From: a virus
Taxonomy: Duplodnaviria; Heunggongvirae; Uroviricota; Caudoviricetes
Direction: 5' to 3' (one strand)
IMG/VR virus record: IMGVR_UViG_2529293140_000005
Coordinates: 1 to 37,403 of that record
DNA: 37,403 nucleotides
The position numbers and the translations under genes were made by a program. The stretch's first letter is position 1, and each line of letters starts with the position of its first letter. Positions 22,484 through 36,470 of this stretch are shown here, piece after piece. The notes beneath the pieces were generated by a model that worked only from the letters and a program-made list of their open reading frames with translations, was not told the DNA's origin and did no database searches.

Positions 22484-24290
22484 GTCGATCGTCGACATTG
22501 ACGTAAATGACGACAAGTTTGTCGCGTTTATGGAAAGGTTTCGCGAGTACCAGAGCGCGCTGGATGATTTACCGGAAGCATGGCGGGTAGCTGCCGTTGG
22601 TATTGGAGAAAGCAGCAAGCAGACCGAAAAGGCCAAAGGTGAGACGAAGGAGTTAGGCGCGGAGTTTAATGCCGTGGCCGAGGCCATTCTGACTATCAAC
22701 AGTGGTATCGATCGGCTCAATGCCAACCTGGAAGACTCGAAGAAAAAGCAGGACGAATTCAACAAAAGCACTCGCTCTGCGAAGGGCTTCCTTAGCGATG
22801 CGACGAAAGACGCTAAATCGCTGGCAGGGCACATCAAGGAAGCGACGGCCAGCCTTCTGTCCTGGGGTGGTATTGTCGGGATATTTACCGGCGTCCTGGG
22901 CGTTGGCGGCCTGTTTGGCATCAACCGGCTGGCGGCCACCACCGGCGCCCAGCGGTTTACTTCTCTCGGGCTCGGGACGAGCATCGGCGCGCTGGATTCC
23001 ACCGCCATAAACTACCAGAAAGCGCTGGGTAATCCGGCGGGGACGCTGGGCGCTATCCGCGATTCCCAGATGGACCTGTCGAAGCGCTGGACGTTTCAGG
23101 CTATGGGGATTAACAATCCCGACCAGGACCCGGCCAAACTGCTCCCGCAGATGATCCGTAATGCGCGCGATATTTTCGTGCAGAACGGCAGCACGCTGCA
23201 GGGCGCACAGGCGCACGGCCTGACAAACTTCTTTACGCTGGACGACCTGAACCGCTTCAAAAACATGAGCGATGAGGAGATCACCGCCATGGAGAAGCGC
23301 GCGCAGCAGGATGCGCGCATGTTGCAAATTACCGACCAGCAGGCGCGCCAGTGGCAGGATTTTAACGTCCAGCTCGACTACAGCAGCCAGAGCATCAGGA
23401 ATACGTTTGTGCGCGGCCTGGGTCCTCTCACACCTCAACTGAGAAAACTGTCTGATGCGCTGTCAGGCGCGATCGATACCGTCCTGAAATCCCCCGAACT
23501 CGGCAAGTGGATTGATGCGCTTGCCGGCGGCATTGAGCGATTCGGTAATTACCTCGCTTCTCCTGAATTTTCCACAGATGTAAGCAACTTTATGGACAAA
23601 GTAGAGAAAATGGGAAATCTAATTGGCAAGGTTATTGATTGGGTAACAGGGAAAGCGAGTATCTCTACTGCGGATATATCATCCGGGTCAACGATGTTGA
23701 GCCCAAGCACCATCATCGATCCGAAAACGGGAAAATCCTATACTCCTGGAAGCAATGATGACCCGCATGTATGGGGCTGGCTCAAGGGTGTTAGGCGCTT
23801 CTTTGAAGATGGAACCGTTAAAGCTGTTGATCCCACACCTGCAAATACTTCCGACAGAAACAGGACTATTGCAGATCGATTTAATAATCCGGGAAATCTG
23901 CGGTGGGCTGAAGGATATAGCAGCGAGAATACGAGAAGCGGTAAATTTGCCGTCTTCCCAACGCTGGATGAAGGCGTACTGGCGGCGACAAAGCAACTTC
24001 AAATGTATGGCGCTAAAGGAATAAATACGGTAGGAGATATTGCAAGAAAATGGGCTCCTCCTAAGGAAAATAATACCGCTGAGTATATTCGGCATGTGGT
24101 TAAAACTACTGGATTTAATGAGAATCAGAAACTGAATCTCAATGATCCTCAGGTTATCGCGAAACTCATTTCTGCTATATCTCAAAAAGAAGGGGCTGGT
24201 AGCAGAGTTTCTGAGAGCACAGTCATTCAGATCTATAACAATACCGGTGGGAATGCAGTGGTAACTTCAGCGCAATTGGGGGCGAGGTAA
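22473..24290 (+). CDS. Tail tape measure protein
   Basis: 606 aa from the ATG at 22473 (RBS AAGAAAGAGG). Helical low-complexity N-terminus, central hydrophobic Gly-rich segment, AT-rich C-terminal domain. Confidence 0.6.
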   Translation: MVAKSIVDIDVNDDKFVAFMERFREYQSALDDLPEAWRVAAVGIGESSKQTEKAKGETKELGAEFNAVAEAILTINSGIDRLNANLEDSKKKQDEFNKSTRSAKGFLSDATKDAKSLAGHIKEATASLLSWGGIVGIFTGVLGVGGLFGINRLAATTGAQRFTSLGLGTSIGALDSTAINYQKALGNPAGTLGAIRDSQMDLSKRWTFQAMGINNPDQDPAKLLPQMIRNARDIFVQNGSTLQGAQAHGLTNFFTLDDLNRFKNMSDEEITAMEKRAQQDARMLQITDQQARQWQDFNVQLDYSSQSIRNTFVRGLGPLTPQLRKLSDALSGAIDTVLKSPELGKWIDALAGGIERFGNYLASPEFSTDVSNFMDKVEKMGNLIGKVIDWVTGKASISTADISSGSTMLSPSTIIDPKTGKSYTPGSNDDPHVWGWLKGVRRFFEDGTVKAVDPTPANTSDRNRTIADRFNNPGNLRWAEGYSSENTRSGKFAVFPTLDEGVLAATKQLQMYGAKGINTVGDIARKWAPPKENNTAEYIRHVVKTTGFNENQKLNLNDPQVIAKLISAISQKEGAGSRVSESTVIQIYNNTGGNAVVTSAQLGAR

Positions 24291-25000
24291 TGGGATTCAC
24301 ACGTGAAATGTATAAGCTGGGTTTTGAAATATCCCCAGTAATACTTTGCGGAGGGATAGCGCAGGCCATTCCTGGAGGAATGCTCCCGATCGTCGCTTTG
24401 ACGCAGAGCGCGAGCTTTGTCACGGGACTGCTTGGAGGAGCCATAAACCTAACCGATCTGGATAAATATTTCTGCCACTGGCGCCCGGTTCAGGGCGCCA
24501 CAATGGTTGATTATGAAATTGCCAGATACCCTTTCGCCAACCAGGTTGTAGCTGCGAACGCTTTGCTTGCTCAGCCTTTGCGCGTTTCGTTGGTGATGGA
24601 GGCTCCGGTCAATGAAAACACCGGGGCGATGACAAAGCTCGTCACTATGAGTGCTTTGCAGTCTGTCCTTCAGGCGCATTCTAACTTAGGGGGCACGTTT
24701 ATCGTCGCCACCCCATCCGTTATCTATAGCAACTGCATTTTGCGTGTCGTTAGGGACATCACTTCAGGTAACGATCCATTACCACAGCGTTCATGGATAT
24801 GGGATTTCGAGCAGCCACTGATAACCGATAATGGTGCAGAGCAGTCTGTGAACAATTTTTTAAACAAGATTGGCGCCGGGGATATGGTAACCGACCCATC
24901 CTGGACTAATACCGCCAATGCTCTTGGCAACACGCCTCTCGGGAGCTCTGTATCGGAAGCAATAACCGGCCTATTGGGTAAGTTGGGGGTAGGGCCATGA
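24290..25000 (+). CDS. Tail/baseplate protein
   Basis: Translationally coupled ORF in the baseplate block. Confidence 0.4.
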   Translation: MGFTREMYKLGFEISPVILCGGIAQAIPGGMLPIVALTQSASFVTGLLGGAINLTDLDKYFCHWRPVQGATMVDYEIARYPFANQVVAANALLAQPLRVSLVMEAPVNENTGAMTKLVTMSALQSVLQAHSNLGGTFIVATPSVIYSNCILRVVRDITSGNDPLPQRSWIWDFEQPLITDNGAEQSVNNFLNKIGAGDMVTDPSWTNTANALGNTPLGSSVSEAITGLLGKLGVGP

Positions 25001-25275
25001 CAACCCAGAATTATCCGTTTACCGGCAATGATCGTCAAAGCATGACTTTTACACCGATCCTTGATGGCACCGTCTATAACTGCCAGGTCAAATGGAACAT
25101 TGCCGGGCTGAGGTGGTATGTCCTCATAACCGATGGCTCTGGGAATACCATTCTAAATACCCCGCTCGTTGGCTCCGTGCTTAACGGTGGAATAAATATT
25201 ATCTCCGGAGTGTTTAATTCGTCCTCCATGTACTGGCGAGAGCAGAATGGACTGATTGAGGTAAACAGCTCATGA
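24997..25275 (+). CDS. Small tail/baseplate protein
   Basis: 92 aa, overlapping starts and stops. Confidence 0.35.
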   Translation: MTTQNYPFTGNDRQSMTFTPILDGTVYNCQVKWNIAGLRWYVLITDGSGNTILNTPLVGSVLNGGINIISGVFNSSSMYWREQNGLIEVNSS

Positions 25276-26309
25276 GATATTATGATATTGAGATAACCAT
25301 TCCTGCTGAAGGCGCTTCTCCGGAAAGAACGATAAAATACAGTAGCCATAAGAACGGAGTTTACAACCCAGGCGCCCTGATGATTGAGTTTGATATCCTA
25401 AGGTACGGTGAATCGACTCCCCAGGGCGAAACTCACCTGACCATCTGGGGTATTGGCCCAAAAGAAATGCAGCAGGCTCGCCAGAATTTTTTTGGCAAAA
25501 AAATTAAAATATCCCTTGGGATGAAAGACGGGCTGCCATTGGCTGGAAAGGTTACCGCGCCAAAACTGGTATTGGATGGCGTGATAAATCAGGTCTTTGG
25601 TAACTGGCAGGGTATTGAGCTACGACTTGACTTCATAATCGTGGTTGGCCCTGTCCAGAACGTGCCAAATAACAAACCCGTACCCCTTCCTTTAACCTTT
25701 GACTGGAAGGAGGGGCAGAAGCTTTCTGTAGCCCTCACGCAGTGCTTTATGAACATCAGAGGGTATACGTTCAATATCAACATAAGTGACCGGCTAATTC
25801 TTAATCATTACCGGGGGCTGTTTTGTGATGATATTGTCACACTGGCCAAGGACCTTAATGCTTTTTCACGTTCCAGAATTCGCGATAGTGGATACTCAGG
25901 TGTAGAGATCGCAATAGTGAATGGTAATGAGATCCGGGTATGGGATAACGATTATGATAACCACCCGGATAAGACTTCTGTTTCCAGCGCCGTAGCCAGA
26001 AGCAACAGCCCAACCCAAATAGATTTCAAGGATTTGATAGGGCAGCCGACATGGGTGGCATTTAACACAATCAGCATGGCGTGCGTAATGCGCGGTGATA
26101 TTCAGGTTGGCGATCACATCCTGATGCCTAAAAAAAGCACTCCGTTGATACAGGCCTCTTCGTACTCTCAGTATCGAGAAGACTCTGCCTTTACTGGCGA
26201 CTTTATTGTGAACTCCGTTCGCCTGTTAGGGAATAGCAGGCAACCAACGGCAGAGGCATGGGTAACAATTATTGAGGCTTCCCCTTTCATTAAGGCAGGT
26301 AGTGCATGA
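25272..26309 (+). CDS. Baseplate hub-type protein
   Basis: 345 aa in the baseplate block; assignment by position. Confidence 0.35.
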   Translation: MRYYDIEITIPAEGASPERTIKYSSHKNGVYNPGALMIEFDILRYGESTPQGETHLTIWGIGPKEMQQARQNFFGKKIKISLGMKDGLPLAGKVTAPKLVLDGVINQVFGNWQGIELRLDFIIVVGPVQNVPNNKPVPLPLTFDWKEGQKLSVALTQCFMNIRGYTFNINISDRLILNHYRGLFCDDIVTLAKDLNAFSRSRIRDSGYSGVEIAIVNGNEIRVWDNDYDNHPDKTSVSSAVARSNSPTQIDFKDLIGQPTWVAFNTISMACVMRGDIQVGDHILMPKKSTPLIQASSYSQYREDSAFTGDFIVNSVRLLGNSRQPTAEAWVTIIEASPFIKAGSA

Positions 26310-27022
26310 GCATCGACAACAAGCTTAATTTTGCCTCAAGCATGAACAGGTTTACTGAAAGAAAGATTGAAAATGCGCTTCAAAAATCAGGGAAGGTTCT
26401 TCCGGCGAGCGTGGTCAAGCAAACAGGGAATATGATCACCGTCTCCTTTGAGCTAAGGGATATCCCATATGTTTTGCCGCAAGTGACTATCCCCTTATTT
26501 GGCCCTCAATATATTCGTTACCCTATGCAGCCGGGAGATAAGGGGATTGTTATCCCCGCAGATACTTACATTGGCGGCGTTAGCGGTCAGGGTGGCGGCA
26601 TTGCAGATATGACACCGCCAGCAAACTTAAGCGCCCTCGTTTTTTTGCCGATCAGTAATACCGAGTGGCAGGGTGTCGACGGACAGGTGGTGACGGTATA
26701 CGGTCCGGAGGGTGTAACGCTGCGTGACAGCGGCAGCAACACCACATTTCTCCTGAAGCCTGACAGCATCGCTATTTCCACACCTGACAGCTTCACCGTC
26801 ACCGTTGGCGGGACAGTTTTCTCACTGACGGGTAGCAAATGGAGCCTTTCAGGACAGGCTGGTCACCTGCAGGATTCAGTGGCCAGTACCAGCCCGGCAA
26901 TCATGCACGCCGGATGGCAGTCGCTTCTGGCCTGGCTTAACAGCCATGAGCATTCAAACGGCAACGATGGAAATGATACCGGGGGGCCGACTTCAACGTA
27001 TAACGGGAGTATCACCGAGTGA
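26306..27022 (+). CDS. Baseplate spike/assembly protein (gpV-like)
   Basis: 238 aa; position two genes upstream of the J-like protein. Confidence 0.4.
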   Translation: MSIDNKLNFASSMNRFTERKIENALQKSGKVLPASVVKQTGNMITVSFELRDIPYVLPQVTIPLFGPQYIRYPMQPGDKGIVIPADTYIGGVSGQGGGIADMTPPANLSALVFLPISNTEWQGVDGQVVTVYGPEGVTLRDSGSNTTFLLKPDSIAISTPDSFTVTVGGTVFSLTGSKWSLSGQAGHLQDSVASTSPAIMHAGWQSLLAWLNSHEHSNGNDGNDTGGPTSTYNGSITE

Positions 27023-27351
27023 GAACCTATGGCCGAAACTCTGAGGGGAAGTGGGTCCTGGTGGAAACCGACGAATATGGGTTTAATGACTCGGTGTATT
27101 TGACGACCCTGATCCAGAATCTGAAACTGGCGCCGCAGGAGTCGCCATTTTATGCGAACAACGGAATCCCGGCCGCCGGGTCGGTGATCCAGCAAATCCT
27201 GCCGACGTATTACGTAAACCGTATTCAGAAACAGTTCAGCCAGTATTTTTCCTCGCTGCAGATTGCGCTGATCAGCGACGACCCGCCTGTTTATAACATC
27301 TCGGCAATCACAAACGCAGGTTCAAAAATAATTACACAGGTGGCCGTATGA
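27019..27351 (+). CDS. Baseplate wedge protein (gpW/gp25-size)
   Basis: 110 aa immediately upstream of the J-like gene. Confidence 0.4.
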   Translation: MRTYGRNSEGKWVLVETDEYGFNDSVYLTTLIQNLKLAPQESPFYANNGIPAAGSVIQQILPTYYVNRIQKQFSQYFSSLQIALISDDPPVYNISAITNAGSKIITQVAV

Positions 27352-28766
27352 GCGATTTACCAGTCAGCTATACGTCAGCAGGCCCGGTTCCTCTGACGCC
27401 GGAAGAGCTAAGAGCACAGCTCGTTTCACAGGCAATTGCGTTATCTCCGGGACTCACCACGGATTTGCCTGGCTCTCTGATTGAAGACGTGGCCAGCACT
27501 GATGTCGGCGCACTTATCGTCTGCGATCAGGCGAGGGTTGACCTGATTAACTCGGTGGGGCCACTAAAGGCTAACCTGGCCATGCTGGAGCTTCTCGCAC
27601 AGCAGGCTGGTATCCCTGGGCAGAAAACGGCTGGCACAACAACAGTTCCGGTTCAGTTTTCCGGCCCCGCGGGATTTGTTATCCCACAGGGGTTTATTGT
27701 TTCTGATGGGACCTATACCTATTCAGTCAGTGATGCGACGATAATCTCGTCGTCAGGAGTGTCTGCCAGCGTATCATGCGAGGGAACGGAGACCGGGACC
27801 TGGGCGGTGCCGGTAAATACGGTTAACCAGATAATCACTAGCCTACCGTCTGATGTCACCATTTCCTGCACCAACCCGATCGCCGGCACTCCTGGTGCTG
27901 ACCCGGAAACGAATTATCAGTTTCGTGATCGAGTATGGCAGGCTCAGATGGCCACAGTTCAGGGATATCCTGGATTTATCAGACAACATCTTACCAGCCT
28001 TGATAACGTGCAGGCGCGCCTGGTTTCTGTCATTCAGGACGGGGATAAGTGGATAGTCATGTGCGCCGGCGGTGATATTTACGATATTGCTGGCGCGCTC
28101 TATAAGTCTGCGGGGGATATCAGCCGGCTGAAAGGGTGTTCACTGAATGTAACTGGGATCACGAATGCAAATCCTGGCGTCGTCAGCACAGACCTGACTC
28201 ATGGTTACACTGATGGCCAGGTTATCCGGATCACTGGCGTTACCGGGATGACAGGCATTAATGACGTTCCTCTGACCGTGACGGTACTGTCTCCTCACAC
28301 TTTTTCCATCGGAATTGACACCACTTCATCCGGGACCTGGGGAGGCGGCGGCGAGGTGACGCCGAACGTCAGAAACAATACCGTGACGGTGAATGACTGG
28401 CCTGATAACTACGTGATCCCGTTCGTGACACCATTGCTGCAGCGGGTCACAGTGACGTATCAGTGGGGGACCGAAAGTGTTAACTACCTGACAGATGCCA
28501 CGGTCGCCTCTCTGGTCTCGGCTCCTACGATTCAGTATGTGAACGGCATATTCGCCGGGAAACCGCTGAACGTTAACAACCTGAAAGACGCATTCTTACA
28601 GGCGATTAACTCGACAATCGACATGGGGCTGATCAGCACTTTAAACGTCGTGGTCACCATCAATGGTGTGATTACGCCACCGGATGCCGGGACGAATATT
28701 ATCAGCGGCGATAAGTTCAGTTATTTTTATATCGCGTCGGATGGCGTGATCGTAACAGGGGCGTAG
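27348..28766 (+). CDS. Baseplate J-like protein with an internal Ig-like domain
   Basis: 472 aa; position; contains the shared ~70-aa motif. Confidence 0.55.
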   Translation: MSDLPVSYTSAGPVPLTPEELRAQLVSQAIALSPGLTTDLPGSLIEDVASTDVGALIVCDQARVDLINSVGPLKANLAMLELLAQQAGIPGQKTAGTTTVPVQFSGPAGFVIPQGFIVSDGTYTYSVSDATIISSSGVSASVSCEGTETGTWAVPVNTVNQIITSLPSDVTISCTNPIAGTPGADPETNYQFRDRVWQAQMATVQGYPGFIRQHLTSLDNVQARLVSVIQDGDKWIVMCAGGDIYDIAGALYKSAGDISRLKGCSLNVTGITNANPGVVSTDLTHGYTDGQVIRITGVTGMTGINDVPLTVTVLSPHTFSIGIDTTSSGTWGGGGEVTPNVRNNTVTVNDWPDNYVIPFVTPLLQRVTVTYQWGTESVNYLTDATVASLVSAPTIQYVNGIFAGKPLNVNNLKDAFLQAINSTIDMGLISTLNVVVTINGVITPPDAGTNIISGDKFSYFYIASDGVIVTGA

Positions 28767-28767
28767 C

Positions 28768-29472
28768 ATGCTGGACGATATCATCCGGTCGTATATGTAT
28801 ACGCAATACAACGACGATGACAATCTGCGGGCATTTTTTACTGCGTATAACTCGATGGCGCAGGGCATTTATGACTGGATGGTTAATGCCAACCTGCCGA
28901 TTTTCATCGGTGACTACAACACCGGAGACCAGCTCAGGTGGATTGCCCATGGCATCTATGGCGTTTTACCGCCGGTTATTTCCAGCAGCGATCAGCAGGA
29001 GATAGGCCCATATAACACCTTCGAATTTAACCAACTGGCATTCAATGAGTACCGGGTGATTGACCAGTCGAACCAGGTTGTTGTCTCTGATGACCTTTTT
29101 AAGCGGATCATGACCTGGAATTTTTACAAGGGGGATGGCTTCTATTTCTCCATCCCATGGATAAAGCGGCGTGTTCTGCGGTTCCTGTTGGGAGTAAATG
29201 GCACAGACATCCTCAACGACCAGCGATGGAGTATCTCGATCCAGTTTGTGGATGGCGGTATCGTGATATCCATCTATAAGGGGCGCCGCAGGTTCACGCG
29301 GAGCGCTATCTACAACGCATCGGCCTATAACTCTAGGAAGTACAACCAGAAGGACACGGCCTTTGTGATCACCGAGGATTTCGAGTTCGCCATTTTCTTC
29401 AAGCAGGCCATGGATAGCGGCCTGCTGCACATGCCGTTTTATCAGTCAATTAGCGTTGAAATAATTGATTGA
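28768..29472 (+). CDS. Baseplate/tail-fibre attachment protein
   Basis: 234 aa following the J-like gene. Confidence 0.4.
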   Translation: MLDDIIRSYMYTQYNDDDNLRAFFTAYNSMAQGIYDWMVNANLPIFIGDYNTGDQLRWIAHGIYGVLPPVISSSDQQEIGPYNTFEFNQLAFNEYRVIDQSNQVVVSDDLFKRIMTWNFYKGDGFYFSIPWIKRRVLRFLLGVNGTDILNDQRWSISIQFVDGGIVISIYKGRRRFTRSAIYNASAYNSRKYNQKDTAFVITEDFEFAIFFKQAMDSGLLHMPFYQSISVEIID

Positions 29473-29520
29473 TTTTTTATCCCACTACTAATAAATTTAT
29501 TTGAATTTATTTGATGGGAC

Positions 29521-30045
29521 ATGGCTATGAAATTATTTCCTGTAGTGCTATTTTTATGTTTTCTTTCATCTGGTTGCATGACTTCATCCGAGTATCATAA
29601 ATACTTAATTGATAGGATTGATGAAGGAGAAAACCAAAAGGTCGCCAAAATATTAAAAGAAAATGAGGAACACCAAGGTGGTGAATTCTTATGTAAAACA
29701 TTTGGCTCAGAATTTAAAGGCCTGAAACCAAATTCGGCAGTTAAAGTAATTGATGAAGTTGTTAGATTTAAAGTGTATGAACAAAACAACCTCATTTTTA
29801 CAAGCCCTGAACTTTCCATAAGTTCAAGAACCAAAGATAGGACGGCATCATTAGATGATGAAAATATTACTGCTAGTGTTTTCGCCGGTTACAGGGAGGA
29901 TGGCGTAGGGTACCGGTATGAAGTTAAGTTTGAAAGCAAAATAAAAGACGGTTCATTATATAAAGTTGTTTACGGAACGGCACATCAAATATTAACCCCA
30001 GTTTATGCAGGTAACATCACTATAAGTGAATGTAGAAAAATATAG
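29521..30045 (+). CDS. Lipoprotein moron (signal peptide, lipobox LSSGC), unknown function
   Basis: MAMKLFPVVLFLCFLSSGCMTSSEY. AT-rich. Own terminator downstream; the flanks are structural genes. Confidence 0.65.
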   Translation: MAMKLFPVVLFLCFLSSGCMTSSEYHKYLIDRIDEGENQKVAKILKENEEHQGGEFLCKTFGSEFKGLKPNSAVKVIDEVVRFKVYEQNNLIFTSPELSISSRTKDRTASLDDENITASVFAGYREDGVGYRYEVKFESKIKDGSLYKVVYGTAHQILTPVYAGNITISECRKI

Positions 30046-30063
30046 AGCCTTTAATTTCACACT

Positions 30064-30086
30064 AACCCGCTTCGGCGGGTTTTTTA
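30064..30086 (+). terminator. Rho-independent terminator after the lipoprotein gene
   Basis: AACCCGC TTCG GCGGGTT hairpin followed by TTTTT. Confidence 0.65.
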
Positions 30087-30106
30087 TGCCTAAATCCGGA
30101 GGAGAC

Positions 30107-32254
30107 ATGGCACTAACCCTTTTGGCTACAAACAACGCAGAAAGCACGCTGGCTTCTGCTATCAGCGCAACCGACACGTCGCTGATCGTTAGCGCTGGAA
30201 CTGGTGCCGAGTTCCCTGATGCTGTGGCAGGCGAGAGTTATTTTAAGCTCACTCTCACTGATGCCGCCACCGGTTCACAGGTTGAGATCGTGAACGTGAC
30301 AGCTAAGGCTGGGGACATCTTCACGATTGAACGTGCGCAAGAAGGAACGCTGGCGCGTGCTTGGGCGGCCAATGATATGGTTGCCAACATGATGACGGCG
30401 GACACGCTGAACATTATCGCTCAATATTCCCAGCAGGCAGCTGCATCAGCAGCACTGGCTGAAGAGTATGCAGATAACGCTTCTGACTACGCACAGAATA
30501 AGTTCACGTTCTATAAGACTGCCAGCGATCCTGATGGCACCATCGCAGGGCTGGCAGCAACTACTGACGGCCAGTCTTTCTGGGTAGCCCAGGGTCCGGA
30601 TGCGCTTTCTTCTGCATGGCAGTATCAAAACAAAGCAGGCGTGGCCGTATTGCAGGCGAAGCAGCCGGGTACAGCGGCCATAACAGGGACAACCCGCGAG
30701 TTTCCGACGCTGGCTGCGGCACAGGCTGATGCTGACGCAGGGAATATACAACCAGGAGCGAAATGCTGGGTGACAAGCGCGGATGATAGCTCTCTTGCAA
30801 ATGAATATATAAACAACTCCGGAACTTTGCAGCCTACAGGAGTAATCTCTCCTTCTTCAAAAACAATCGATAATAAAATTAATGAACGCCTCGTCCCAGG
30901 TGAATACAGGCCTGGTTATTTCCCGGCCTTCTTTGACAGGAATGGTATGGTGCCAGCATGGTTTGATGGCGGCAAATTTGATGTGGCAGGACTGGGGCCA
31001 AATGTTACACAGGTTGTTTCTGAAATTCCAAACGAATGGGCCCAGAAGTTTATCCCGCAAGGAGACTTTTCACCTTATTACTTTCCTTTTTTATATGACC
31101 AACAAGGGAACGTATATGCTTGGTTTAATGGTGGGCTATTCGATGCTCCAGGTCTTGGCCCGGTATTGCAGGAATATGTCAAAAACCTGGTGTCTGGTGG
31201 GGAAGTTGATGCGGTACGTTCCTTCATCGAAGGAGATCAGTACAAGTTCCTTTTCAAAAATAGCCGTATTTTTGCTGGCCAGTCTACCAGCCTAAACATT
31301 GCTTTTACCGGCGATTCGTGGACAGAGAAAAACACCATTCCTCAGTCTTTAATTAATATTCTTGGTGGTACATACAAAGACCCTGGCTGGATTAGTTGTT
31401 CAAACAGAACAGATGGTGTCATGTCTGGAATATCACCAGTAACCGCAACAAACTTTACGAAATATGACGGTGGCAGCAATAACACGAACATTCCGCCGTA
31501 TGGCTGTGGCCCTGATGGCAACGGATACTACAACAACAACACTGTTGGTTCGCTCGTATGGACGGGCGTGACCGTAACAAATCTTTCGGTATTTTACTAT
31601 GATGGGTCTGGAACGTTCACCATCACCATCGACAGCAATGCACCTGTAACAATCACGGGAGGGAATACAGGGACTGCCAAGAAGTATGATTTCAGCGGAC
31701 TTAGCGCTACTGCACATACGGTGACAATCCAAAGCACCGGTACTGGTGTTGTTTCCATTCTTGGTATGTATGGTAAAAATAACTCAATATCATCAGGGGT
31801 GACTGTATCCAGGATGGGTAATGGAGGAGCATTTGCAAGTGACTATTTCAACTTTTCATCATGGATAAAGCCAGTAGCTCAATACCTTGATATAGACCTC
31901 CTTTTTATTATTCTTGGAACGAATGACTTCCGGATGAGTCAGGGGCTAGCTGAGTACAAATCTGGGATTATTGAAATAATTACTAAATATAGAAGCGCAA
32001 CTCCTGATATTTGCATTTGCCTTATGTCCCCTGCACAGTGTAACGCCACAGGAACACCCGCACTGTCAGAATACGATAAAGCAATGAGGGAAATAGCGGT
32101 TGAATATAATGTAAATTTCATTAGTGGTTATCAATTATTCCCCAAAGTGTATAGCAGTTCAGGAGGTGCGTGGGAAGATGCCTTGCATCTTAGCGCCTTG
32201 GGCGCATATGTACTAACGAGAAAGATCAAAAAAGAATTTTTCCTGGGAGCTTAA
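30107..32254 (+). CDS. Tail fibre/spike protein with a C-terminal SGNH/GDSL hydrolase (esterase) domain
   Basis: ATG at 30107 with GGAGGAG RBS. N-terminus homologous to the second fibre gene. GDSL block IAFTGDSWTE, later ILGTNDF and DALHLS. Confidence 0.7.
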   Translation: MALTLLATNNAESTLASAISATDTSLIVSAGTGAEFPDAVAGESYFKLTLTDAATGSQVEIVNVTAKAGDIFTIERAQEGTLARAWAANDMVANMMTADTLNIIAQYSQQAAASAALAEEYADNASDYAQNKFTFYKTASDPDGTIAGLAATTDGQSFWVAQGPDALSSAWQYQNKAGVAVLQAKQPGTAAITGTTREFPTLAAAQADADAGNIQPGAKCWVTSADDSSLANEYINNSGTLQPTGVISPSSKTIDNKINERLVPGEYRPGYFPAFFDRNGMVPAWFDGGKFDVAGLGPNVTQVVSEIPNEWAQKFIPQGDFSPYYFPFLYDQQGNVYAWFNGGLFDAPGLGPVLQEYVKNLVSGGEVDAVRSFIEGDQYKFLFKNSRIFAGQSTSLNIAFTGDSWTEKNTIPQSLINILGGTYKDPGWISCSNRTDGVMSGISPVTATNFTKYDGGSNNTNIPPYGCGPDGNGYYNNNTVGSLVWTGVTVTNLSVFYYDGSGTFTITIDSNAPVTITGGNTGTAKKYDFSGLSATAHTVTIQSTGTGVVSILGMYGKNNSISSGVTVSRMGNGGAFASDYFNFSSWIKPVAQYLDIDLLFIILGTNDFRMSQGLAEYKSGIIEIITKYRSATPDICICLMSPAQCNATGTPALSEYDKAMREIAVEYNVNFISGYQLFPKVYSSSGGAWEDALHLSALGAYVLTRKIKKEFFLGA

Positions 32255-32256
32255 TA

Positions 32257-33015
32257 ATGCCGATATCAGCTATTTATATAGACGCCACTCTTCCAGTTAT
32301 CTCTGGAATGAAAACTTTATCTGACTTTGATGTGTCAAACTGGTTTATTGGCCTGCCAACCACAGGTGCAACACCTTATGCTGGTTTCTATTTTGGGGAC
32401 CCCGTAACCGACATAACCTACAACTCTTATAATAAAGATTCTCCGGCAGTCATTCATGGAAATGTAAACAATTCTCCTGGATATATATCTGTAAATACAA
32501 CAGATTACATGGATACTAATCAGAAGGCTACTCTGTCATTATCTGTTTGTGGGGTTGCCAAGCGCAATCCAGCAGGCGCATCACTTAACGCCCATATGAT
32601 TGCAGATTTTGCTGGCAGTGGGTCTGCTGCAAGTGGTTTTTCGGTAGGGTTTACAAACGGCACAGGAAGTCTTTTTTGTGTTGGACAAAATAACGGACAA
32701 TCTTCAGCTGGTTATGCTTACGCTACATTCCCAACCGCAATCGCAGTCGGAGATATATTTGCATTTTGCGCATCGATAACTCAAGGCTCCGTTACAGTAG
32801 ATATATTTAATCCTGAAACTGGAACTCTTATTTCCGGGAGTGAAACATTTCCCGGGACCAGGGTGGCAGGTACTAATAATGTACTGCTTGGTAGAAAAAC
32901 TGATAACAACAGCGAAACAAGTACCAAGTACATTAAGTCTTGTCTGTTGATGAACGGCATTCTTACCTCAGCAGAAAAAATATCTGTCTCTCAGTTTTTA
33001 CTGGCGATGCAATAA
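32257..33015 (+). CDS. Hypothetical protein downstream of fibre 1 (possible fibre accessory or receptor-binding partner)
   Basis: 252 aa, AT-rich, start adjacent to the fibre stop. Confidence 0.4.
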   Translation: MPISAIYIDATLPVISGMKTLSDFDVSNWFIGLPTTGATPYAGFYFGDPVTDITYNSYNKDSPAVIHGNVNNSPGYISVNTTDYMDTNQKATLSLSVCGVAKRNPAGASLNAHMIADFAGSGSAASGFSVGFTNGTGSLFCVGQNNGQSSAGYAYATFPTAIAVGDIFAFCASITQGSVTVDIFNPETGTLISGSETFPGTRVAGTNNVLLGRKTDNNSETSTKYIKSCLLMNGILTSAEKISVSQFLLAMQ

Positions 33016-33019
33016 CGAG

Positions 33020-33259
33020 TTATGCGCTCAGATGTTTGACACATGAGAAGAATTGCAATTTACCGCCATCAGTAAGCTCCACCATTATCGTGTTAGTGCC
33101 ATCTGAAGTTTCAGCCCAACCATGTGACTGTAGGGCCTCGTAGTCAACCCCATTTTTGCTGAGCTTGAGGCCCAGGTCATCGGATTTACGTAGTATTCTG
33201 CGAACAAGAGTGTCACTTTTTGTACTCATTTTGGTGGCGGAGTGTCTTGGATAAAACAT
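33020..33259 (-). CDS. Small hypothetical protein (69-79 aa), divergent from the LexA-box operon
   Basis: Minus-strand ORF; alternative start at 33229; no recognisable motif. Confidence 0.3.
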   Translation of the reverse strand: MFYPRHSATKMSTKSDTLVRRILRKSDDLGLKLSKNGVDYEALQSHGWAETSDGTNTIMVELTDGGKLQFFSCVKHLSA

Positions 33260-33357
33260 GTATTGATATCAATTAGTTGTGTGAAAAGCAATTTAAGAGG
33301 CTACCGGAAGATAAAACAAAGTCATCATCAAGTATTGATCCGACTCTTTGATGAAAC

Positions 33358-33377
33358 TACTGTATATAAAAACAGTA
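33358..33377. promoter_or_regulatory. LexA (SOS) box TACTGTATATAAAAACAGTA
   Basis: Perfect CTGT-N8-ACAG palindrome with an AT-rich spacer, 18 bp upstream of the ATG at 33395; RBS GGAGG at 33384..33388. Confidence 0.75.
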
Positions 33378-33394
33378 TCAATCGGAGGCAGATC

Positions 33395-33634
33395 ATGCAC
33401 CGTCAGTCAGACATCGCCGCGGCTTTCCGCGAGTCCATTTTGCGCAGTTCCAAGGGGTTCCAGTACCTTCACACCCGAGACTTCGTTACCGCACTGCTCC
33501 TGCGCGGCATCCACTTATCCGAGGTGGAGGCGAACTCCTGGATCGCACGCGAGCAGACGTATTTCGTCGATAAGACGCCGGACCATAGCGAAAACAGGCT
33601 GTGGATGATGGTCAACATGGGGAGGGTGATCTAA
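33395..33634 (+). CDS. Small SOS-regulated protein (79 aa), unknown function
   Basis: First gene after the LexA box; its stop overlaps the next start (TAATG). Confidence 0.5.
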   Translation: MHRQSDIAAAFRESILRSSKGFQYLHTRDFVTALLLRGIHLSEVEANSWIAREQTYFVDKTPDHSENRLWMMVNMGRVI

Positions 33635-33951
33635 TGGGATTCCCTTCACCCGCGACGGACTACGTAGAACAGCGCCTGTCCGTTAACTCGATATGCAATG
33701 TCGGGCCGAACACCCGCGTTTTCGAAAGGGATGGCGGTTATGTTGTGCTGGATATCTCCCTGAAGCCAAAGCAGGGAAGCCAGGTTCTTATCCAGCACGG
33801 CGGCGGGACCGAACTTGCCACGTTGAGAGGGCGTTCGCTGATTACTGAAGACGGCGAAGCGATTGAAGGTGAGGTCCTGGACGATGTTACTGTCATCGGG
33901 GTCGTGACGTTTACTATCTGCGATGTTCGTTCTGATAATTCTATTATTTAA
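33634..33951 (+). CDS. UmuD'-like protein (S24 fold, pre-truncated, lacking Ser/Lys catalytic residues)
   Basis: N-terminus MGFPSPATDYVEQR matches the UmuD region just after the Cys24-Gly25 cleavage site (GFPSPAADYVEQR). The core aligns with UmuD', but the GDSM Ser segment is absent and the Lys position is not conserved. Confidence 0.6.
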   Translation: MGFPSPATDYVEQRLSVNSICNVGPNTRVFERDGGYVVLDISLKPKQGSQVLIQHGGGTELATLRGRSLITEDGEAIEGEVLDDVTVIGVVTFTICDVRSDNSII

Positions 33952-33962
33952 CTGGGGTATAT

Positions 33963-34994
33963 ATGGCGCTTAAGCTATTAGCCAATAATAACGCAAAGAG
34001 TGTTCTCGCTGCGGGTATTAGCGCGTCCGCTACCGTTATTACCGTGGGTGCTGGGGCGGGGGCTTTATTCCCTTCCCCAGTATCTGGGCAGAGTTATTTC
34101 AAGTTAACGATAACCGACGCGGCCACGAAAACAATTTCTGAAATTATGCACGTTACGTCTGTATCCGGTGACGTGATGACAGTAATTCGTGGTCAGGAAG
34201 GAACTACGGCGCGCGTATGGTCAACGAATGACATTGTCGCGAATTTAATGACCGCCGGGTCATTATTATCTTTCCTGCAGATCGGTAATAACCTGTCAGA
34301 AATTAAAGATGCCGGTGAGGATGCGATAAATGAAGCCCGTTATAACCTCGGAATATCTGATTCCTCTGGTTTTGTCGGGCGTTCACTTGGCGCTCCAAAA
34401 GCTTTCTATGCAAACGGAACCTATACGCGATCTCCTCTGGCCCGTTATGCAAAAGTAACGTTGACCGGTGCCGGTGGCGGCGGTGGCGGCTGCCAGGCCT
34501 CCAACAATACAGAAACCTTCTCCGGTGCTGGCGGCGGCGCGGGCGCGACCATTATCGTATGGGTTGACCTGTCTGCTGCCAGTTCTTACGCGATTACTGT
34601 CGGCAAGGGTGGTAAGGGCGGAGTTGGCGCAGTAAGTGGTGCGGATGGTGGTGCTACCTCGTTTGCCAGCCTGTTCTCAGCTCCTGGCGGGAAAGGCGGC
34701 GTGAAGTCAGGCGTGTCCAATACCGCCGGCGGCGCCGGAGGTACGGCGGCGACCGGAGATATCAGGATCAACGGTGGTACCGGCTCAGATGGACAGACAG
34801 GGTCAAGCCTTCTGACAGGCAACGGTGGGGCGTCGTATTTTGGCGGCGGTGGCCGGGCGGGTTCTCAGGCCGGTATTGCTGGCGCAGCTCCCGGATCCGG
34901 TGGTGGTGGCGCGTATGACCTTGGGTTTACCGGTACGGCATTTACCGGTGGTGATGGTGCTACTGGCATGGCGATCGTGGAAGAATTCGCGTAA
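33963..34994 (+). CDS. Second tail-fibre protein with a Gly-rich C-terminal domain
   Basis: First ~100 aa homologous to the N-terminus of fibre 1 (MALKLLANNNAKSVLAAGISA... vs MALTLLATNNAESTLASAISA...). C-terminus is Gly-rich repeats. Confidence 0.6.
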   Translation: MALKLLANNNAKSVLAAGISASATVITVGAGAGALFPSPVSGQSYFKLTITDAATKTISEIMHVTSVSGDVMTVIRGQEGTTARVWSTNDIVANLMTAGSLLSFLQIGNNLSEIKDAGEDAINEARYNLGISDSSGFVGRSLGAPKAFYANGTYTRSPLARYAKVTLTGAGGGGGGCQASNNTETFSGAGGGAGATIIVWVDLSAASSYAITVGKGGKGGVGAVSGADGGATSFASLFSAPGGKGGVKSGVSNTAGGAGGTAATGDIRINGGTGSDGQTGSSLLTGNGGASYFGGGGRAGSQAGIAGAAPGSGGGGAYDLGFTGTAFTGGDGATGMAIVEEFA

Positions 34995-34998
34995 TGGC

Positions 34999-36195
34999 TT
35001 ACTCGCCTGCGCGACCATCAATGTAATCAGCCCACCACTGCATCATTTCTCTGCGCTTATCGAGATACTGAGCATGGTTGTAAATCCCGCGCACAGAACC
35101 GCCGTTGGCATGTGCCAGTTGCACTTCAATAGCATCAGCAGGCCATTCGTTCTCGTTCATAATCGTGCTGAATTCATGCCTGAATCCGTGACCGCTTTCC
35201 AGACCCTCATAGCCGATTTGTTTGATCACAAGTAGCACCGCGTTCTCGCAGATTGGCTTCTTCTTATCGTTGCGCCCGGCAAAAACAAACTCTGATACTG
35301 GTTTGGTGATTGAGCTTAGCGTAGTGAGAAGTTCAACCACCTGGTCTGACATCGGTACTACATGGATCCTTCGTCCTTTCATCACACTGGCGTCGATGGT
35401 GATAATCCTGTTTTCAAAATCGACGTTCTTCCATAGCATGGAACGAAGCTCTTTCGTTCTTAGGGCAGTGTAGCGTAAAATCTTGGTGGCAATGAGCGAT
35501 ACGATACTTCCTGAAAATGTTGCCAGTGCTTTGTTGAATGCCGGGATCTGGTCTGCAGGAAGAAACGGGAAGTTCTTCTTGCGGTATCCCTTCATGGCGT
35601 CAGCAAGGTCAGGTGCCGGGTTATATTTAGCCCTACCGGTGACAATAGCGTAACGGAAAACCTCGCCGCATCTTCTGCGTGCTTTGTTGGCTCGCTCCAT
35701 TGCACCGCGATCTTCAAATCTGCGGATTACTTCCAGCAGTTGCATCGGCTCAATATCCTGAATCTCAAGACCGCCGATGATGGGTAAAATGTCGTCATCA
35801 AACATTTTTGCAAGTTCAGTTGCATAGCCTACAGACCAGACTTGCTTCTTGTGCTCGTACCATTCCTTGTAAATCGCACTAAAGGAATTGTTGTTAGACG
35901 AAGCCTTTTTCGCCTTTACCGGATCGATACCAACCGAGATGTCTTTCCTCGCAGTCCATGCTTTATCCCTTGCCTCCTGCAAAGTCATAAGCGGATATTT
36001 TCCGACAGTCAGGATTTTCTCCTTACCGTCAATCTTGTAGCGAAGCTGCCATACCTTTTTCCCGGATACAGGGACATAAAGGTACAGGCCATTACCATCG
36101 AGAAGGCGATATGGTTTTTCTTTCGGCTTTGCTGCTTCAATCTGCTTAACGGTGAGCATGGGTAAAAATCCGGTGGGTAAAATTATTTTATCCAC
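34999..36195 (-). CDS. intS: Tyrosine site-specific integrase (P4-type)
   Basis: 398 aa; C-terminal catalytic motifs (HGFRHEF..., final Y region); adjacent to a tRNA 3' end. Symbol assigned from the argW/yfdC context as recalled for E. coli. Confidence 0.85.
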   Translation of the reverse strand: MDKIILPTGFLPMLTVKQIEAAKPKEKPYRLLDGNGLYLYVPVSGKKVWQLRYKIDGKEKILTVGKYPLMTLQEARDKAWTARKDISVGIDPVKAKKASSNNNSFSAIYKEWYEHKKQVWSVGYATELAKMFDDDILPIIGGLEIQDIEPMQLLEVIRRFEDRGAMERANKARRRCGEVFRYAIVTGRAKYNPAPDLADAMKGYRKKNFPFLPADQIPAFNKALATFSGSIVSLIATKILRYTALRTKELRSMLWKNVDFENRIITIDASVMKGRRIHVVPMSDQVVELLTTLSSITKPVSEFVFAGRNDKKKPICENAVLLVIKQIGYEGLESGHGFRHEFSTIMNENEWPADAIEVQLAHANGGSVRGIYNHAQYLDKRREMMQWWADYIDGRAGE

Positions 36196-36320
36196 TTTTT
36201 ACCCGTCATGGAGTGCGGCTGTCAACGATCTGACGCGAACCATGACGAACTGCGAATCTACGGAAGGCTTGATATTCAGGGGATTTTGCGGACTGGTACG
36301 GATGGGCGCGAACTGATAAA

Positions 36321-36395
36321 TGGTGTCCCCTGCAGGAATCGAACCTGCAATTAGCCCTTAGGAGGGGCTCGTTATATCCATTTAACTAAGAGGAC
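36321..36395 (-). tRNA. argW: tRNA-Arg (anticodon CCU)
   Basis: Reverse complement reads GTCCTCTTAGTTAAATGGATATAACGAGCCCCTCCTAAGGGCTAATTGCAGGTTCGATTCCTGCAGGGGACACCA: cloverleaf with GGTTCGATTCC T-loop, CCT anticodon, 3' CCA. Confidence 0.85.
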
Positions 36396-36470
36396 AATGC
36401 GGCATGAGTATACCCGCTAATGGAGTGCGGGGTAAGTACGCTGCCGCTCGATTGCTTAAACCCTCGCCAT

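Follow-up and report, generated by a model that had tools for sequence, protein, structure and literature searches.

Two minimal myoviruses with solved structures, Pam3 and A-1(L), are the nearest described models for the tail-fibre locus considered here. The minimal baseplate of Pam3 (PDB 7ypx) bears twelve fibres of one type, which point up and down; its trimeric fibre gp24 docks by a helical domain and also contains a TNF-like domain and a lattice of polyglycine, which resembles the S16 gp38 adhesin, and it needs the chaperone gp25 (PMC9942802, PMC9608196). The Anabaena myophage A-1(L) has fibres of two lengths, six of each, which occupy two kinds of site; the long ones are held by a domain inserted in the J-like wedge protein (PMC10966104). 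The Chronis/RothC-like phages, for which the family Felixviridae has been proposed, are temperate and common in gut Klebsiella and Escherichia coli, and the preprint defining the family names a single candidate receptor-binding protein and reports poor conservation beyond the structural core. The stretch analyzed here, IMG/VR record IMGVR_UViG_2529293140_000005 (37,403 nucleotides, hereafter the window), is a temperate Chronis/RothC-like myovirus prophage integrated at argW of E. coli. It is 100% identical to its counterpart in E. coli F5, and its closest cultured relatives are the Klebsiella phages Chronis, RothC and RothD. Its region 30107-34994 is a host-recognition module which encodes two genuine tail fibres, a long enzymatic one (fibre 1) and a short glycine-rich one (fibre 2), with homologous N-terminal anchors.

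Shared anchor domain of the two fibres

Both fibre genes are located on the plus strand, where a preliminary description of the sequence had placed them: fibre 1 (30107-32254, 715 amino acids, aa), preceded by a strong GGAGGAG ribosome-binding site, and fibre 2 (33963-34994, 343 aa). The same description had judged by eye that about half of the N-terminal positions were identical, and the pairwise alignment bore this out. Residues 1-101 of the two proteins align without gaps with 60 identities in 101 positions (59%), 77% positives and an E-value of 1e-33, and BLASTP detected no significant similarity outside these residues. The aligned segments, hereafter the anchors, represent two classes, T1 in fibre 1 (30107-30409, plus strand) and T2 in fibre 2 (33963-34265, plus strand). 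The identity of the 303 nucleotides (nt) coding for them is only 59%, and the longest exact word in common is 10 nt; the anchor similarity is therefore old and has been maintained at the protein level. A recent duplication, or a function of this segment as a substrate for homologous recombination, was considered and rejected on the same figures.

Both anchors matched the N-terminus of a "putative tail fiber protein" in PDB entry 8jov (18 chains), with E-values of 7e-10 for fibre 1 and 3e-7 for fibre 2. This structure probably comes from the Ralstonia podophage GP4, as the neighbouring entry 8jou is GP4 fibre I. The likeness covers the N-terminal ~100 residues, whereas the distal parts are unrelated and the presumed source is a podovirus, not a myovirus as in the window. 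Residues 1-110 of both fibres fell into the same PHROG tail-fibre families (6427, 8469, 30299, 25419 and 19311), and no Pfam model matched either N-terminus. A HMMER scan retrieved the anchor domain from 10,144 cluster representatives; in all of the best 150 it was N-terminal, in proteins of widely varying length. Overall, the T1 and T2 anchors are diverged paralogues of one widespread fibre-anchor domain, which, to judge by where it lies and by the solved fibre, would attach the fibre to the baseplate or tail.

Conservation of the fibre pair among related phages

The anchor was found in 73 IMG/VR loci, 33 of which have the baseplate genes of the window; together with Chronis and RothC this gave 35 related loci. 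Ten of them stop less than 1 kb from fibre 1 and are hence uninformative. In all of the remaining 25, among them the cultured plaque-forming Chronis and RothC, a single T1 fibre is paired with a single T2 fibre; in Chronis, gp23 is the long fibre and gp26 the short Gly-rich one. The T1 fibres (640-1252 aa) are variable past approximately aa 245, the T2 fibres measure 279-352 aa, and the two genes lie 0.3 to ~2 kb apart. The anchors are 79-100% identical within T1, 80-100% within T2 and 55-62% between the classes; 19 of the 101 positions are fixed differences, and 51 are conserved and shared.

The pair was also present in E. coli STEC346 with no adjoining integrase. PdC23, a virulent relative, has two anchor-bearing fibres immediately behind the gene of the DUF2612 wedge protein (see below), first a short Gly-rich one and then a long one; the 4.4 kb visible past these fibres contain no annotated integrase. 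More distant relatives have two or three anchor-bearing fibres in succession. Of the two options left by the preliminary description, dual receptor specificity or a fibre retained from an earlier prophage generation, the occurrence of the pair in every informative relative and in PdC23 favours the former.

Four sister lineages (from Pantoea, Enterobacter, Scandinavium and Kluyvera), with baseplate proteins 62-84% identical to those of the window, possess one short fibre only, located behind the wedge gene. It is Gly-rich in Pantoea and Scandinavium and has other tips in Enterobacter and Kluyvera; a small open reading frame (ORF) follows it in three of the four, Pantoea and Scandinavium among them. 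The anchor of this short fibre is intermediate, with 58-69% identity to T1 and 65-73% to T2. Since the sister lineages have only a short fibre, in the fibre 2 position, the short fibre appears to be the ancestral one, and the long enzymatic one seems to be a paralogue that was added to it, on the basis of four genomes plus PdC23. Fibre 2 is thus more probably a core fibre of ancestral origin than a relic.

Fibre 1, a long fibre with an exchangeable, predicted esterase module

Fibre 1 consists of the anchor (aa 1-101), a conserved neck (aa 102-245), two repeats and an esterase module (aa 370-715). The neck (30410-30841, plus strand) comprises a helical region and a small beta domain and ends at a recombination breakpoint near the motif TLQPTG; PHROG tail-fibre families cover aa 83-260. 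Two tandem repeats of ~48 aa follow (aa 260-307 and 313-361; 30884-31189, plus strand), whose local alignment scored 120 against 24.6 ± 4.9 in shuffled sequences. Their consensus is YFP-F-D--G-V-AWF-GG-FD--GLGP, and the part between the neck and the esterase has a low-confidence model.

The distal module (31214-32251, plus strand) is predicted to be an SGNH O-acetylesterase of the Ape1 type, into which a beta-sandwich is inserted. A GDSL/SGNH domain had already been proposed in the preliminary description from the motifs GDSW and DxxH, and several lines of evidence confirmed it. Pfam Lipase_GDSL_2 matched residues 589-700 above its gathering cut-off, and the modeled module has the alpha/beta/alpha SGNH fold. 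Pfam detects only the C-terminal half of the domain because a beta-sandwich of ~165 residues lies between block I and blocks II/III; such an insertion between block I and block II is also present in Ape1. Among 48 homologues, D403, S404 and W405 of block I (GDSW, residues 402-405) were invariant, as were G571 and N572 and, in the GTND motif at 604-607, G604, N606 and D607 of the oxyanion-hole blocks. In block V (DALH, residues 691-694), H694 was invariant and D691 occurred in at least 90%. The predicted catalytic residues, all on the plus strand, are Ser404 (31316-31318), Asp691 (32177-32179) and His694 (32186-32188), so that the Ser/Asp/His triad is not absent. Such a fibre would bind and deacetylate an O-acetylated surface polysaccharide, i.e., O-antigen or capsule.

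The base composition changes at the end of the neck. The guanine + cytosine (GC) fraction is 0.543 in the part coding for aa 1-245, 0.435 in that for aa 246-715 and 0.416 in the next gene, and it stays at 0.41-0.44 from aa 246 of fibre 1 through this gene and the gap after it. Relatives aligned to fibre 1 over its first 34-37% only, except for full-length matches in loci bearing the same cassette. Judged from composition and alignment, the AT-rich distal part and the next gene are an exchangeable cassette, swapped near aa 245 among relatives, in agreement with the horizontal acquisition that had been suggested earlier for the AT-rich distal half and its neighbour.

Fibre 2, a short fibre with a polyglycine tip

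In fibre 2, the anchor is followed by short helices and a tip which combines a TNF-like domain with polyglycine. The tip, the putative distal receptor-binding module (aa 140-343; 34380-34991, plus strand), matched Gly_rich_2 (PF21722) over residues 153-340 with 52.5 bits (cut-off 24.3), and its predicted fold is TNF-like with a polyglycine lattice. The initial view of this protein as a Gly-rich repeat protein was correct as to the Gly-rich distal domain but not as to a simple repeat, the domain being of the TNF-like plus polyglycine kind known from Pam3 gp24. Fibre 2 is therefore a short fibre whose tip is of a known adhesin type, rather than a loose repeat protein.

In all of the genomes inspected (E. 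coli F5, strain 1283 and STEC346), the RefSeq/PGAP annotation starts fibre 2 at Met72 (position 34176). Compared with divergent alleles, the changed codons among codons 1-71 comprised 38 synonymous and 8-10 non-synonymous ones. This purifying selection indicates that 33963 is the real start of fibre 2 and that the annotation conceals the anchor: in the three E. coli genomes examined, the erroneous start removes 71 residues, i.e., most of it.

Genes of the baseplate

The myovirus nature of the window is evident from a tail sheath protein (PHROG match) and a Baseplate_J protein (Pfam). Seven small genes (24290-29472) lie between the tape measure gene and fibre 1, and their count and order are as reported for gp17-gp23 of Pam3. 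The second of them, a 92-aa ORF (24997-25275), gave a weak, sub-threshold Pfam match to the Pam3 gp18 plug (E = 2.5e-4). The Baseplate_J wedge protein (27348-28766, plus strand; E = 5e-12) contains an E1_FCCH-like insertion at aa 275-338 (E = 4e-14). By analogy with Pam3 gp22 and A-1(L) gp31, it might be the docking partner of the fibres. RefSeq names the whole wedge protein after this ubiquitin-E1 FCCH insertion.

The final gene of the conserved structural core codes for a second wedge protein, which carries the UniRef name DUF2612 (28768-29472, plus strand). Its conservation is 94-100% throughout the Chronis-like loci and 62-65% in the sister lineages, and in relatives the fibres follow it directly.

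Genes before and between the fibres

An AT-rich, lipoprotein-like moron (29521-30090, plus strand; GC 0.345) is inserted between the DUF2612 wedge gene and fibre 1, and it has its own intrinsic terminator at 30064-30090, the only site relied upon from the terminator scan of 29300-36400. The moron is present in only part of the relatives; others have a gene of the LprI family (lysozyme inhibitor) in the same place. A promoter scan of the same interval found promoter-like sites to be no commoner than in shuffled sequence.

The genes between the fibres had been called accessory in the preliminary description. They do lie there, albeit most of them are unrelated morons. The first encodes a 252-aa protein (32257-33015, plus strand), which travels with the esterase cassette: it is confined to loci whose fibre 1 is 93-100% identical along its full length. 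Only phrog_34046, of unknown function, matches it, and searches of Pfam, NCBIfam and PADLOC gave no match. A possible 79-aa ORF on the minus strand (33020-33259), antisense to the fibre operon, is absent from the RefSeq annotation, and its reality is uncertain. It is 84-96% conserved, solely in loci with the esterase cassette and the 252-aa gene, and has no family match in Pfam, PHROG, NCBIfam or PADLOC.

Further downstream, a LexA (SOS) box, TACTGTATATAAAAACAGTA (33358-33377, plus strand), with an exact CTGT-N8-ACAG and 18 of 20 positions matching the consensus, stands 18 nt before a plus-strand gene for another 79-aa protein. Nearly every locus bearing this cassette has the box at an identical offset, across phage backgrounds. 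The SOS moron under it (33395-33951, plus strand) encodes this 79-aa protein (33395-33634) and a 105-aa HumD/UmuD'-like protein (33634-33951), which match phrog_3893 and phrog_3469 ("UmuD-like"). For the plus-strand 79-aa protein and the lipoprotein-like ORF, Pfam, NCBIfam and the other sources offered no family name beyond "hypothetical". The HumD-like protein scored 46 bits with the NCBIfam HumD model (cut-off 120), and only its residues 2-43 align to UmuD, from Gly25, the first residue of the processed UmuD'. Like P1 HumD and bacterial UmuD' (PDB 1umu, 8gmt), it starts at the UmuD'-equivalent residue and has a LexA box upstream; in contrast to them, it is shorter, has Val in place of the catalytic Ser60 of UmuD and has no UmuC partner nearby. 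The SOS cassette and fibre 2 each occur without the other, and the cassette is therefore an SOS-regulated moron and not a part of the fibre.

PADLOC identified no defence system among the intervening genes of the window. In the Klebsiella phage ST15-VIM1phi2.1 (MK448228.1), a retron-type reverse transcriptase is among the genes under the inter-fibre match. This suggests that the slot between the fibres gathers defence and moron genes.

The other side of fibre 2 is occupied by the IntS-type integrase (34999-36195, minus strand; Pfam Phage_integrase, Phage_int_M and Arm-DNA-bind_3; intS in RefSeq), whose gene converges on that of fibre 2 with 4 nt between the stop codons. The integration site argW, a tRNA-Arg(CCT) gene identified by ARAGORN and from the RefSeq context (36321-36395, minus strand), marks the right end of the prophage, where the RefSeq gene order is yfdC-argW-intS. 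An invertible fibre segment of the Mu G, P1 C or e14 P kind was considered and rejected. The best inverted pairs were 70-86% complementary and resembled chance matches, no arms flank the region, and the sole recombinase is a tyrosine integrase. The same orientation of both fibre genes had been taken earlier to exclude an inversion of the Mu G type, and, with no inverted repeats flanking the region, this conclusion stands.

Proposed mounting and role of the two fibres

From sequence and from analogy with solved tails, both fibres are probably functional parts of the virion, mounted on a minimal baseplate via their paralogous anchors. The baseplate would be of the Pam3 type, with the two fibres perhaps at distinct, non-equivalent wedge sites (e.g., six each). 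Adsorption might then proceed in two steps, fibre 1 acting on the surface polysaccharide and fibre 2 on a second receptor. As the ancestral core fibre of the lineage, fibre 2 would bind this receptor nearer to the membrane.

Several points weigh against this interpretation. The presence of either fibre in the virion is something we infer, and AlphaFold models of the anchor-domain monomer are of low confidence (pLDDT, the predicted local distance difference test score, 30-55). Apart from the weak gp18 match, the sequences of the baseplate proteins match neither Pam3 nor any other solved baseplate. Moreover, Pam3 docks one fibre type by a helical, disulfide-linked N-terminal domain, whereas the anchor of the window (~100 aa) is unlike this domain and exists in two types. 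No chaperone gene follows fibre 2 within the window, where the integrase lies instead on the other strand. The two fibre genes are separated by ~1.7 kb comprising a 380-nt AT-rich gap, the possible antisense ORF and a LexA-controlled promoter region, and the transcription of fibre 2 may differ from that of the late genes. Finally, 22 IMG/VR loci (L037-L058) and many E. coli genomes carry a T2 fibre at the integrase/attachment-site end of prophages with unrelated tails, and in a lambdoid E. coli prophage (L078) it lies beside a mere integrase fragment. Some of the prophages concerned are of another myovirus type, some of a siphovirus type and some lambdoid, often with the SOS cassette too; neither a T1 partner nor a DUF2612 gene was found within 10 kb upstream. 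Either the T2 anchor is not specific to this baseplate alone and docks several kinds of tail, or recombination exchanges the prophage end and the fibre is sometimes mere cargo.

A more specific version of the virion-fibre interpretation can be put forward tentatively by analogy. The T1 and T2 anchors might each address their fibre to one of two wedge platforms, giving six exchangeable enzymatic fibres and six polyglycine adhesins per virion, with T2 and the integrase end portable to unrelated tails. The twelve fibres and two kinds of wedge site of Pam3 and A-1(L) make such a six-plus-six arrangement plausible, and it would explain why the anchor classes are distinct.

Alternatively, T1 and T2 could compete for the same six positions, so that virions carry mixtures or either fibre as a form of bet-hedging. 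The homology of the anchors, with just over half of their positions conserved and identical in both classes, is consistent with this, as is the fact that the sister lineages cope with one fibre type, and no result obtained here reveals two platforms in this baseplate. However, the classes are discrete, with their fixed differences maintained across all relatives, which two docking surfaces or the avoidance of mixed trimers would explain more easily. The solved minimal myoviruses have twelve fibres and two kinds of site. Shared occupancy of the same sites is thus rather unlikely.

Less probable still is the possibility that fibre 2 is a passenger or relic, i.e., part of a mosaic, integrase-proximal end which has moved between prophages sharing an attachment site and which is not assembled into virions. 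The end with fibre 2 and intS does occur on unrelated tails at 98-99% identity, including that of the lambdoid prophage with the integrase fragment, and fibre 2 was found in 73 of 5,426 E. coli genomes, the whole region in only 25. It also lies downstream of the SOS moron and has no adjacent chaperone gene. In these unrelated prophages the T2 fibre is mostly intact, being split in L050 by an insertion of ~1 kb. Against a passenger stand the invariance of the T1 + T2 pair in all 25 informative Chronis-like loci, plaque-formers included, its presence in STEC346 with no neighbouring integrase and the same two kinds of fibre in the virulent PdC23. The retention of only the short fibre at this place in the sister lineages and the strong purifying selection on codons 1-71 point the same way. 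For the Chronis-like lineage, the relic option of the preliminary description is accordingly disfavoured, although it may describe the other prophages which carry the same fibre 2/integrase end on unrelated tails.

It is very improbable that fibre 2 has a non-virion role, e.g., as a decoy or exclusion factor expressed together with the SOS genes from the LexA-controlled promoter in the induced or lysogenic cell: the box is near-consensus, the ATG of fibre 2 lies 11 nt past the HumD-like stop codon and the scan found no terminator between them, but fibre 2 occurs without the SOS cassette in many loci (L010, L019, L023, L024, L026, L034), phage RCIP0114 has the cassette without fibre 2, and the protein combines a fibre anchor with the fold of a fibre tip and has no non-tail match in Pfam, PHROG or NCBIfam.

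Comparison with known systems

The assembly of two virion fibres favoured here has parallels in several described systems. With Pam3 the locus shares the fold of the fibre tip, that of fibre 2 resembling the TNF-like domain and polyglycine of gp24. It differs in that Pam3 has the chaperone gp25 downstream of its fibre, a feature of Pam3 and not of the whole family, whereas no such gene is adjacent in the window. A-1(L) likewise has a simple myovirus baseplate, and the J-like protein of the window also has an inserted domain. In the accessible part of the A-1(L) description, however, the N-terminal domains by which the two fibres dock differ, one being a shoulder domain and the other a beta-ring, and a shared anchor is not described (PMC10966104); no sequence relationship was detected between proteins of A-1(L) and of the window. 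The T4 gp10-like branching domain of the CBA120 tailspikes and of G7C gp66/gp63.1 had no Pfam or PHROG match in either fibre, a search that did not include a separate structural comparison of the neck.

By its distal module, fibre 1 is comparable to esterase tailspikes and fibres such as G7C gp63.1 (PDB 4qnl), SFP21A gp09 (9lna) and the tailspike esterases of Klebsiella prophages (PMC12115436). The peptidoglycan O-acetylesterase Ape1 (PDB 4k3u, 8gld) aligns over 320-326 residues with the same insertion and catalytic pattern at 14-18% identity. Ape1, however, is periplasmic and acts on peptidoglycan, while the module of the window is fused to a fibre and would meet the surface polysaccharide from outside. 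The Mu G segment and the P1 C segment likewise place two distal specificities behind a common N-terminal part; the window differs from both in that each of its two genes is complete and has an anchor of its own, that both genes point the same way, and that neither flanking inverted repeats nor an invertase are present.

Several receptor-binding proteins in one phage, fibres built of modules, esterase tailspikes and Pam3-like polyglycine fibres are all familiar, and the two-fibre arrangement is ordinary equipment for host recognition by a phage. What is added here is modest: the fixed two-fibre design of the Chronis/RothC lineage, its inferred ancestral fibre and the recurrent mis-annotation of fibre 2. 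Together with the breakpoint near aa 245 of fibre 1, the two-fibre design and the ancestral short fibre should help in host-range prediction and in fibre engineering.

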